DNA from: Octopus vulgaris
Lineage: Eukaryota
Length of the DNA: 64,000 bases
Direction of reading: 5' to 3'
Assembly (NCBI GenBank): GCA_951406725.2
Contig: OX597826.1
Location: 19,654,001-19,718,000 of the forward strand
The stretch's first letter is position 1, and each line of letters starts with the position of its first letter. Below are positions 541 through 12,943 of the stretch, one piece after another. The notes beneath the pieces are model-generated. The model was not told where the DNA came from and ran no database searches. It saw only the letters and a list, made by a program, of their open reading frames with translations. Position numbers and translations under genes: made by a program.

Positions 541-1738
541 CATATATATATGAATATATATATATATATATATATATATATATATATATATATATATATA
601 TATATATATATATATATATATATATATATATATATATATATATATATATATATATATATATATATATATATATATATATATATATATATATATATATATA
701 TATATATATATATATATATATATATATATATATATATATATATATATATATATATATATATATATATATATATATATATATATATATATATATATATATA
801 TATATATATATATATATATATATATATATATATATATATATATATATATATATATATATATATATATATATATATATATATATATATATATATATATATA
901 TATATATATATATATATATATATATATATATATATATATATATATATATATATATATATATATATATATATATATATATATATATATATATATATATATA
1001 TATATATATATATATATATATATATATATATATATATATATATATATATATATATATATATATATATATATATATATATATATATATATATATATATATA
1101 TATATATATATATATATATATATATATATATATATATATATATATATATATATATATATATATATATATATATATATATATATATATATATATATATATA
1201 TATATATATATATATATATATATATATATATATATATATATATATATATATATATATATATATATATATATATATATATATATATATATATATATATATA
1301 TATATATATATATATATATATATATATATATATATATATATATATATATATATATATATATATATATATATATATATATATATATATATATATATATATA
1401 TATATATATATATATATATATATATATATATATATATATATATATATATATATATATATATATATATATATATATATATATATATATATATATATATATA
1501 TATATATATATATATATATATATATATATATATATATATATATATATATATATATATATATATATATATATATATATATATATATATATATATATATATA
1601 TATATATATATATATGTATATATATATATATATATATATATATATATATATATATATATATATATATATATATATATATATATATATATATATATATATA
1701 TATATATATATATATATATATATATATATATATATATA
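541..1738. repeat. (TA)n microsatellite, about 1.2 kb, almost pure
   Basis: Direct reading; source of the spurious IYIY ORF 493-1779. Confidence 0.98.
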
Positions 1739-1937
1739 CTACAAAATTAGAGAATGGAGAAACATACTTAAATCAGTAAAACATCAACTATCCGATGATA
1801 CTCAATCCATACTTTAATACACCATTACATATGAGTAAAGGCAATATATAAAATGAAATGAGATATACAGTAATAGTAAAAGTAAAAAGATAAAGAGATA
1901 TAAGTAAAAAATTTCAAATATAATATGCAAATAAATC

Positions 1938-2053
1938 AAAACTGACAGCTGTTTCGGCAGTGAGGACAGTCATACCTCATTTAACCTATAAGCCATAAAG
2001 GCAGGTATAAATGAGGCATTAACAAGGATGCCCCACGGCCTCTTCAGAGAATT
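1938..2053 (-). ncRNA. Type-I hammerhead ribozyme with 85-nt extended stem II (PLE copy 1)
   Basis: Reverse strand: aattct CTGAAGA ggccgtggggca...atgcctcattta...taaatgaggtat...tgtcctcactgcc GAAA cagctg TC agtttt. Core complete, palindromic stem III CAGCTG, GUC triplet. Stem I is weak. Confidence 0.8.
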
Positions 2054-9837: not shown

Positions 9838-11615
9838 CTAAGTTCTATTTGAATCTAGAAAAGGTGAACGGTAGCCTATGGATACAAAAGAAGTTTTTCT
9901 CATTAATGTTGTTAATAATTTGCCGACCCGCTTTAATAATGAAGAAAATTTCATTAATACATAGAGAGCATTTTTATTTTTTCCATTATACACAGGTGCT
10001 GAAGTTAGTATTTTCCAGTTTAATCTAAAATCTAAGTTCTTACTTTTAAGTTCCCAAATGTATGCACTTAGCCCTGTAGAGTACATTCTATTTTTATTCC
10101 TAAAAGTATATCTGTGATAATTCCATCTTTGTTTTATGCTATTCATAGTTGCCCCGATATACACCCTACTACTCAATTGTGTATCTACAGTGCATTGGTA
10201 AACTACCTCCTTCCTGAGGCATTGATTACCAAATACACATTTATTTTTATTTCTGCAATTACAAAGATTAACAGAATGAGGAAATCTAAGATTGGACACC
10301 ACCCCTATACTACTATTCACATTATAAGTGTTACAATTGTTATCATCATCCAAACCCAAAATCAACGAATGAGTTAATTTCACATTATCGGCTATATTCC
10401 TATCACTAGTACTAGTATTGGTAGTAGTAGTATGATCCATTACATTTATATTATCTCTGACAGGTATGGTGCACTCATTATTAGTAAGGAGGTTGTTCCC
10501 ATTAGTTCCAAGAAAATTTCTATTCCTATTATTAATGAAGAGGGGCAAGTTTTCCTGGTCTAAATTCAATTTTCTATCCTTATAGAAGTGATCCAGTTTC
10601 TTGTTATTAAAAGAGGAGATAATGGTGGCTAGATTATGAGTAATGCTATATCCCACTCTAACAGTATCGTTGTTAATTAAAGGACTAAATTTATTCCTAT
10701 CCTTACCAAAATGCCTAAAAATAACATTATGCAAAGCTCTCACTATGTTTGTTTTAATCTGCATTGCATACGGGATAATCAACCAAAGAGTATCCTTATC
10801 AGAATTAGGATTGCCTATAGTATTAATGTTATTTGTAAAAATCCTATTCGTAGACCAACTCATAGGATTACTATTCTTACCACTGTTATTATTATATCTA
10901 TCTGTATCATTATTACCATGGTTATTGCGCAAGTAAACTTTACCAATATCATGTCTACCATAAGTTTTAATTCGTATATTATTATTAATATTACTACTAT
11001 TACCCGTATGCTTAGATCTATTTGAGCTACCGTTCACCTTTCCAAGGTTAACGTCACTTCTACATTTATTATAGGTGTTATCATATATTCTATTTTTACT
11101 ATTCTTATGTATATTGTTGATTATCCTAAATCTATTTGTGTTGTTCCTGATAGTTCTACCTACATTAGGGGGGTTCCCCTTAGGTATAAACCAAATCTTA
11201 CTTTTATATCCTGCCTTAAGTAATGCTGCATTATATCTATCACAGTGTTTGTTAAAAATTTCCTCGTTTGAGGATAAACTAGAAATTCTCTGACTAATGC
11301 TACGCACTAGTGCATTTTTAATTTGAGGGGGTGATTACTAGAACGGTTAATGTATATTAGGTTAGAATTAGGTTTAATATAGGGTTCATGTAAACCATTA
11401 GTAATGTTACAATTAACATCTAAATAATTAGCAGAATAATTTTCACTTTCAATGATAATGGATAGGCCGAAGCTTTTAAAAAATTTATTTATTCTTTTTT
11501 TCAGAAGATCTAATCTCCTATTTGATGTATTCCTAACACAAAATAAGGCGTCATCCCTGTATAATCCACCTTTTAATTCAGGGAATTCCCTACTAAAGTT
11601 ATCTAATAGATACAT
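9838..11615 (-). pseudogene. 5'-truncated second copy of the PLE ORF (RT C-terminal part, linker, GIY-YIG)
   Basis: ORFs 11307-11615 and 9838-11307 are near-identical to copy 1 but carry different homopolymer frameshifts. Confidence 0.9.
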
Positions 11616-11991
11616 AATCTAGCCACCATTATCTCCTCTTTTAATAACAAGAAACTGGATCACTTCTATAAGGATAGAAAATTGAATTTAGACCAGGAAA
11701 ACTTGCCCCTCTTCATTAATAATAGGAATAGAAATTTTCTTGGAACTAATGGGAACAACCTCCTTACTAATAATGAGTGCACCATACCTGTCAGAGATTT
11801 ATATTATCTCTGACAGGTATGGTGCACTCATTATTAGTAAGGAGGTTGTTCCCATTAGTTCCAAGAAAATTTCTATTCCTATTATTAATGAAGAGGGGCA
11901 AGTTTTCCTGGTCTAAATTCAATTTTCTATCCTTATAGAAGTGATCCAGTTTCTTGTTATTAAAAGAGGAGATAATGGTGGCTAGATTATG
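11613..11991. repeat. Foldback palindrome within the PLE, arms about 186 bp, 7-nt loop
   Basis: 11613-11798 is the reverse complement of 11806-11991; loop ttatatt at 11799-11805. Confidence 0.9.
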
Positions 11992-12943
11992 AGTAATGCT
12001 ATATCCCACTCTAACAGTATCGTTGTTAATTAAAGGACTAAATTTATTCCTATCCTTACCAAAATGCCTAAAAATAACATTATGCAAAGCTCTCACTATG
12101 TTTGTTTTAATCTGCATTGCATACGGGATAATCAACCAAAGAGTATCCTTATCAGAATTAGGATTGCCTATAGTATTAATGTTATTTGTAAAAATCCTAT
12201 TCGTAGACCAACTCATAGGATTACTATTCTTACCACTGTTATTATTATATCTATCTGTATCATTATTACCATGGTTATTGCGCAAGTAAACTTTACCAAT
12301 ATCATGTCTACCATAAGTTTTAATTCGTATATTATTATTAATATTACTACTATTACCCGTATGCTTAGATCTATTTGAGCTACCGTTCACCTTTCCAAGG
12401 TTAACGTCACTTCTACATTTATTATAGGTGTTATCATATATTCTATTTTTACTATTCTTATGTATATTGTTGATTATCCTAAATCTATTTGTGTTGTTCC
12501 TGATAGTTCTACCTACATTAGGGGGTTCCCCTTAGGTATAAACCAAATCTTACTTTTATATCCTGCCTTAAGTAATGCTGCATTATATCTATCACAGTGT
12601 TTGTTAAAAATTTCCTCGTTTGAGGATAAACTAGAAATTCTCTGACTAATGCTACGCACTAGTGCATTTTTAATTTGAGGGGGGTGATTACTAGAACGGT
12701 TAATGTATATTAGGTTAGAATTAGGTTTAATATAGGGTTCATGTAAACCATTAGTAATGTTACAATTAACATCTAAATAATTAGCAGAATAATTTTCACT
12801 TTCAATGATAATGGATAGGCCGAAGCTTTTAAAAAATTTATTTATTCTTTTTTTCAGAAGATCTAATCTCCTATTTGATGTATTCCTAACACAAAATAAG
12901 GCGTCATCCCTGTATAATCCACCTTTTAATTCAGGGAATTCCC

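Follow-up and report, generated by a model that had tools for sequence, protein, structure and literature searches.

How is an element copied into DNA when its own RNA carries a ribozyme at each end of the unit, and does such an arrangement amount to a new kind of system? The question is raised by a 64-kb stretch of Octopus vulgaris DNA (hereafter the window; assembly GCA_951406725.2, contig OX597826.1, positions 19,654,001 to 19,718,000), in which a tandem insertion of a Penelope-like element (PLE) holds two identical hammerhead ribozymes. An earlier note on the window, made from its letters alone, took this for the best candidate there for an undescribed system, replicating via a ribozyme-processed, possibly circular RNA. 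By motif definition the element is assigned here to the Hydra clade of PLEs, as a long-ribozyme variant within that clade and not a new system. The reading that we prefer, and hold to be reasonably probable as a whole, is that it cuts (TA)n DNA, primes internally at two fixed sites, A and B, and uses both cut and uncut RNAs as template. The role of PLE hammerheads and the origin of tandems, inverted copies and one-sided tails are called unresolved in PMC8557442 and PMC11167929. A young and numerous family lets the life cycle be read from DNA, through two fixed priming sites used one per DNA end, a sharply defined RNA end upstream and a limit to the copies at the predicted cut, and it supplies exact coordinates for biochemistry in a clade for which none was found in the literature accessible to us.

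All coordinates are positions in the window, and the element's sense strand is the window's minus strand, on which the features below lie unless stated otherwise. The insertion is flanked by two unstranded (TA)n target arrays, at 542–1738 on the left and 12944–13608 on the right. From its 5′ side it comprises a third copy reduced to an internal open reading frame (ORF) fragment (12945–11797), a 186-nt inverted segment (11613–11798, plus strand) that forms a fold-back with 3-nt microhomology at its left junction, a 5′-truncated upstream copy (11615–7370) that constitutes a pseudo-long terminal repeat (pseudo-LTR), and a full copy ending at 1737. The head-to-tail copies of the earlier note are indeed a tandem, although the second unit is a 5′-truncated partial, followed by the inversion and the third fragment, which shows no substitutions against copy 2 in 1111 compared bases. 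The upstream (7576–7683) and downstream (1942–2049) type I hammerheads are identical across 121 nt, each has an 85-nt stem II, and their GUC triplets, with predicted cuts after 7578 and 1944, are spaced by 5634 nt, which confirms the unit length first proposed. The leader 3′ of the upstream cut is 518 nt long (7060–7577; from 7577 to the ATG at 7059), the ORF occupies 4219–7059 and the 3′ untranslated region (UTR) about 2275 nt (1944–4218), close to the predicted 520 nt and 2.3 kb. Past the downstream cut, a 3′ tail (1737–1943) ends at site A, +208 from the cut where the earlier note gave about 200 nt, and enters (TA)n at a TA dinucleotide. Nine upstream AUGs lie in the leader, and ORF translation may require splicing or internal entry.

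Clade, protein and ribozyme

The ORF encodes reverse transcriptase (RT), thumb, linker and GIY-YIG endonuclease of Hydra type. An ORF of about 950 aa had been predicted, and one of 947 aa is found in a natural copy, L128, the only open frame among 20 fetched tandem loci, whereas the window copy is frameshifted by three homopolymer-length indels, near 5700, 5545 and 4945. The 947-aa protein carries RIRWR at 35, SDKT at 137, YRDD at 376, CNCRNKNKC at 809, CSLC at 907 and CIH at 935, and lacks both a CCHH Zn finger and any Cys pair in the stretch from the GIY-like strand to YIG. Its C-terminal GIY-YIG endonuclease (VVY...YIG) was recognised by motif, and the conserved R, E and N line up among homologues; Pfam returned no match on the element protein and GIY-YIG only at E 0.51 on a homologue. 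An octopus host is suggested independently by a protein named from Octopus sinensis, with 98% identity across 340 aa. DK[TS] is present in 69 of the 74 long proteins of the match set (query included) and DKG in none of the 74. The predicted structure (predicted local distance difference test, pLDDT, 80) has four TERTs as its top fold matches (E 6e-9 to 4e-8), and two Asn-rich inserts (aa 509–625 and 719–804) are predicted to be disordered.

A telomerase-like RT and C-terminal GIY-YIG in a single ORF, together with partial tandems (pseudo-LTR), inverted 5′-truncated copies and a one-ended tail, are features of endonuclease-bearing (EN+) PLEs. Within these, DKT in place of DKG, RWR as a conservative variant of RWK, an endonuclease lacking CCHH, a CxCX5C linker, CxxC and CxH near the conserved E and N, and insertion at (TA)n correspond to the motifs by which the Hydra clade is defined in PMC8557442. 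Membership of Penelope/Poseidon, Neptune or Nematis was rejected, as the DKG motif and the CCHH Zn finger are both absent; so was Naiad/Chlamys, where the endonuclease is N-terminal. The element is unusual for the clade in its 5634-nt unit, beyond a size tendency (<3 kb) that is not strict, and in a hammerhead whose core is canonical but whose stem II of 85–100 nt and stem I of 2–4 bp fall outside the range of File S2. The claim of an undescribed system is not sustained, since the element answers to the published clade definition and PMC4209133 had already proposed, in 2014, that ribozymes process PLE RNA to a circle. The literature also contains partial tandems, tails and Asn-rich inserts, the last described in 2013 (PMC3846280). 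What remains unusual for the clade is the 5.6-kb unit, the covarying stem II of 85–100 nt and a 170–180-nt tail. That the family is autonomous, recently active and TA-targeted is supported, as first suggested; its recent activity shows in the best 40 of 1275 candidate matches, which are 100% identical over 161 nt.

C6 runs at ORF positions 1356–1361 and 1515–1520 are shortened in 17/25 and 23/26 segments respectively (L111–L130 and the window), A/T runs of 5–7 in the same segments are nearly always intact, and C6-run lengths differ between copies within one insertion. The shortening could stem from errors in the assembly or from slippage of the element's RT at C runs, and in the second case most new copies would be dead on arrival.

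Cleavage by the ribozyme in vivo is likely, on the indirect indication given by the 5′ ends of genomic copies. The 104-nt core folds with z = -5.2, none of 200 shuffles being equally stable, and all core residues are retained in three subfamilies, in which the region from CUGAAGA to GAAA spans 85, 86 and 100 nt. In an alignment of 18 sequences chosen from 50 distinct ones, 97% of cells pair and 4 of 22 stem II pairs are changed on both sides, against 31–47% pairing in slid control alignments; because the sequences represent three lineages only, this covariation amounts to a handful of events. Stem III is a palindrome, ACAGCUGU, closed by a loop of 2 nt. In the youngest subfamily, the window's own, stem I consists of only 2 canonical pairs. 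The monomer ribozyme is therefore predicted to be weak, and activity is predicted to depend on a dimer or on protein. Rfam reported no hammerhead at gathering level in the window; given that a stem II of 85–100 nt exceeds the usual search descriptors and that Rfam missed it, such ribozymes are probably undercounted.

Probable priming sites and 5′ ends of copies

In 30 loci picked on the ribozyme alone, copies terminate at site A (+204 to +210) or at site B (+374 to +389) or run on into the ORF, and no copy among the 30 ends at the cut. Genome-wide, forward matches ending at site A number 425 and those ending at site B 423, compared with 3 that end no more than 12 nt from the cut. Forward counts alone were used, reverse-strand counts being inflated by a variable gap, and the site A search motif covers a narrower subfamily range than that for site B. 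The distribution of 3′ termini, which the earlier note had proposed as a check, thus resolves into two fixed sites, and its permuted DNA ends are best read as two fixed priming sites, the known PLE tail (PMC11167929), instead of variable entry into a circle. Subfamilies B and C end at the same two sites. The subfamily B relative in the window (60788–62070, about 74% identical, hammerhead core 61161–61265) ends at site B, and it does run further into the leader than copy 1, by about 180 nt. In the leader, site A lies at about 7368–7374 and site B at 7189–7204. The 170–180-nt interval between them (7189–7374), the tail, is well conserved, with predicted hairpins, and predicted to be structured in all three subfamilies; the 3′ ends themselves coincide with TA dinucleotides. 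Similar pyrimidine-rich motifs precede both sites, and a hairpin just before site B keeps its stem with a different loop in subfamily C. This hairpin and motif region (7189–7374) is a candidate RT-binding element.

The two sites are used in pairs. The places listed for C1 comprise 31 A and 35 B, and in all 17/17 divergent pairs that they form A is combined with B. The same combination is found in 35/35 inverted pairs of a wider de-duplicated set that includes those 17, and in 18 of the 21 loci with junctions beside the cut, the other 3 being untypable. Two-site paired priming is on these counts very probable. In a literature search with most subscription journals outside its coverage, we found no paper giving A+B pairing counts. 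Inheritance of the 3′ ends from read-through (UA)n tails was rejected, as arms that belong to a single insertion differ in the site at which they end.

The 5′ ends were collected from 73 arms (loci L131–L176) chosen on the 3′ end alone, with breaks of high-scoring segment pairs at microsatellites (8344, 8102) treated as censored. Twelve of 54 arms at risk, from 7 insertions, stop within 31 nt 3′ of the cut (a family-wide cluster at 7547–7577); the background is 0.024 per bin, and the next bin upstream holds 1/42. A second pile-up of 6/25 arms (4 insertions) lies at 8136–8166, and nominal p values for the two bins are 5e-9 and 2e-5; with L177–L206 added, the counts become 16/76 and 10/37. Head-to-head junctions point to the same two positions. 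Under a genome-wide pattern, 21 lie beside the cut, compared with 8 at a control motif in the leader; their 42 arms end at +1 to +36, with 2 reaching +1 and none crossing the cut or entering GUC, which the pattern permitted. Near 8153 there are 22 junctions, 8 of them with both arms joined at that base and 2 extending past 8160, and in the 15 examined, 24 of 30 arms hold the exact intact core through the cut. Many copies were therefore made from RNA uncut through the ribozyme to a 5′ end at 8153, and the cut monomer is not the sole template. Of the ribozyme-processed RNA once proposed, genomic signs of in vivo cutting remain, alongside these many copies from uncut RNA.

We read the two pile-ups as run-off from two linear RNA ends, one made by the ribozyme and the other by initiation of transcription within the pseudo-LTR, which serves as promoter in Penelope (PMC2377424). 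The candidate start, A8153 (TC|ATAG) within the cluster at 8136–8159, lies 575 nt upstream of the cut, with a counterpart by alignment at about 2521 in the 3′ UTR. The region around 8153 is weakly structured, local folds reaching only -2 to -4.5 kcal/mol, on which ground RNA structure was rejected as the source of this pile-up; a single master palindrome was rejected as the junction sequences differ. A splice acceptor (CAG just after the cut) was likewise rejected for the 5′ pile-up beside it, given that some arms include +1/+2 and that splicing leaves no free end.

Templates of long copies and rival explanations

In the mechanism that we propose, the element protein would cut (TA)n DNA and one fixed site, A or B, would serve each broken DNA end. 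Transcription would begin in the upstream pseudo-LTR near 8153, and the hammerhead would cut part of the RNA, its palindromic stem III needing a partner copy. Each DNA end would then anneal at A or B through TA microhomology, and the cDNAs would run off the RNA 5′ end, whether cut or start site, or stop early, before being joined head to head. For copies that exceed one unit, the window's among them, the template would lack a fixed 5′ end, whether through strand transfer across repeated RNA ends or in the form of a ligated circle.

Several observations weigh against this mechanism. The window insertion's right end has no B arm, and in subfamily B a possible A/A pair (L069 and L076, G000:C5:3658381-3663384) has divergent arms that both end at site A with 0.8 kb of unrelated DNA between them, either an exception or two insertions. 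The 5′ bins were picked after inspection and their arms are non-independent, 12 arms representing 7 insertions and 6 representing 4. The pile-up at the cut is blunt and lies just 3′ of the region's most stable structure, stem I offers only 2 canonical pairs in the youngest subfamily, and the evidence consists of DNA copies in one assembly. In Poseidon, moreover, no RNA-seq reads were reported to start or end at the cut, and insertion in vitro did not require cleavage (PMC11167929). Finally, among 21 tandem copies, selected to span the cut so that ends at the cut could not show, 16 reach beyond 8153 on its upstream side, and no copy has its end within 50 nt of that position; a simple linear transcript does not account for this.

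Such tandems are a recurrent product, as 26 of the 44 matches listed span the whole of a 661-nt tandem-junction query at other loci. Duplicated parts within one insertion are usually identical or nearly so. Private alleles, shared within the insertion and absent elsewhere, are found in 14/18 fetched loci and in the window, whose copies 1 and 2 differ by 10 substitutions, all private; two of the 14 loci rest on one site near the tail end, and L123 and L124 (chimeric locus; same insertion as L122) were left out. This sharing suggests one source per insertion. Of the 40 differences seen inside insertions, however, 17, spread over 6 of the 19 insertions, have both alleles elsewhere, which hints at two templates or at assembly mosaics.

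One source is what would be expected if the paired hammerheads released a 5634-nt monomer that was ligated into a circle and served as the productive template, with RT from A or B rolling past the junction to leave seamless partial tandems, and with linear cut and uncut RNAs yielding only short dead copies. The seamless junctions across the cut (those best 40 of 1275 matches), the passage of most tandem copies through the candidate start without stopping and the shared private alleles would all follow, and the palindromic stem III would act in a dimer and be silent in a monomer circle (PMC4209133). However, the same DNA is predicted by strand transfer on terminally repeated RNA, the differences with both alleles elsewhere speak against a circle, the discrete 5′ ends make linear RNA a common template, and no circle was found in the accessible literature for an autonomous PLE. 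We consider the circle as productive template possible but on the unlikely side. The longer-than-unit copies by themselves are compatible with a ligated circle as well as with strand transfer between the repeated ends of the RNA, and DNA does not discriminate between the two; strand transfer is slightly favoured because both discrete 5′ ends belong to linear RNA, and junction RT-PCR cannot decide for a circle because genomic tandems give the same junction as one closed cut to cut. A more ambitious combination, in which a 5.6-kb ribozyme-made circular RNA and a two-headed complex priming two ends at two fixed sites are joined with a giant stem II scaffold, and the copies represent the first in vivo footprint of a PLE hammerhead, is in its entirety unlikely.

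As the main rival reading of the pile-up beside the cut, this boundary could arise with a ribozyme inactive, or nearly so, in the youngest subfamily, if RT stalled at stem II or at a competing hairpin and the ends were then trimmed, the long stem being kept for another role such as protein binding. The strongest local structure does lie at 7590–7640, the predicted fold places a competing 6-bp hairpin across the cut, stem I has 2 bp, and PLE hammerheads are described in accessible reports as weak in vitro and dispensable for Poseidon insertion in vitro. Stalling would, however, leave some arms reaching into the 12 nt that separate the cut from stem II, where 0/42 junction arms and 2/60 arms are found, and the retention of all core residues in three subfamilies is at odds with inactivity, so that we regard this explanation as improbable. 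That the window tandem and fold-back are long-read assembly artefacts, as the palindrome at 11613–11991 with its resemblance to a chimeric read and a C6 shortening of the kind sequencing error could give might suggest, is very improbable, since the same junction is crossed at other loci, 10 private sites distinguish copy 1 from copy 2, and inverted copies follow the A+B rule, unlike chimeric reads.

Relation to described systems and neighbouring features

Among described systems, the Hydra clade (Craig et al. 2021, PMC8557442) shares with the octopus element a single ORF of RT followed by GIY-YIG, the motifs above, (TA)n insertion and a 3′ type I hammerhead, and includes an octopus member. The 5634-nt unit contrasts with 1080–3045 bp in the 27 families listed there, the 947-aa protein with a median near 709 aa in 68 complete-looking homologues, and the 85–100-nt stem II region with a length that never exceeds 24 nt among the 26 Hydra entries of File S2. 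The octopus member, Hydra-1_Obim of Octopus bimaculoides (2507 bp), has another RT sequence and a short stem II and, compared by eye only, is a different family.

Poseidon PAc of Anolis carolinensis (Frangieh et al. 2024, PMC11167929) provides the closest mechanistic parallel in its two internal RT start sites, which account for the tail in vitro, the cutting and extension of both strands, an AT-rich target and the use of uncut RNA as template. The tail of 170–180 nt in the 5′ leader of the octopus element compares with 30–40 nt in PAc; ends on TA microhomology and a strict, counted pairing of one A with one B are unlike the PAc account, and the octopus copies pile up at the cut, where no RNA-seq ends are described for PAc (PMC11167929). 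Cervera and de la Pena (2014, PMC4209133) found hammerheads in both pseudo-LTRs, a palindromic helix III and dimer activity, and proposed a circular template for more-than-unit copies. Their PLE hammerheads have a helix II of 6–8 bp, as opposed to the 85–100-nt region here, and their evidence was in vitro and bioinformatic, with no 5′-end footprint of copies found in the accessible text. Penelope of Adineta vaga (Arkhipova et al. 2013, PMC3846280) has Asn-rich ORF inserts, head-to-head palindromic junctions and a tail ending one inverted pLTR; it belongs to another clade, is of low copy number, has inserts of 460–554 aa and was proposed to self-prime on an antisense template. Animal non-LTR retrozymes (PMC7229834; bioRxiv 10.64898/2026.07.22.740005) also carry tandem type I hammerheads, with a proposed PLE origin. 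The circular RNA reported for them comes from non-coding repeats of about 300 nt, whereas the octopus element is autonomous and coding, measures 5.6 kb and forms no more than partial tandems. Thirty-one recently active Penelope-like families were described in Octopus vulgaris in PMC13282606, the main text of which, where accessible, names neither Hydra nor hammerheads. In our literature search, with the coverage given above, no paper on the ribozyme of this family was found; the repeat library of PMC13282606 and Repbase/Dfam may hold the family.

Further relatives lie within the window. A subfamily C relative (13980–17210, plus strand) comprises an inverted piece, the endonuclease end and a 3′ UTR of about 2.1 kb, with a long-stem-II hammerhead from 17121 that is incomplete here and has a 100-nt stem II in other copies, and a short fold-back piece at 62294–62508 holds the endonuclease end of a related subfamily. 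The sole Rfam hit in the window, MIR169_2 at 11676–11928, was rejected because it coincides with the fold-back palindrome. At 58476–58523 on the plus strand lies a compact type I hammerhead whose stem II is short, the only match of its kind in the window (0 in 100 shuffles), and near it, at 59301–59531 on the same strand, is a diverged Hydra-like endonuclease fragment of 29% identity; together (58476–59531) they probably represent another, conventional Hydra-type family. The ORF fragments at 22782–25358, 29294–30274, 41746–43653, 47874–49449, 62737–63921 and 38762–39313 resemble endonuclease or RT pieces of long interspersed nuclear elements and, in one case, a Helitron-like helicase piece. 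A tandem array of an approximately 66-nt repeat at 28621–29029 is related to a dispersed repeat at 30875–31361 and elsewhere.

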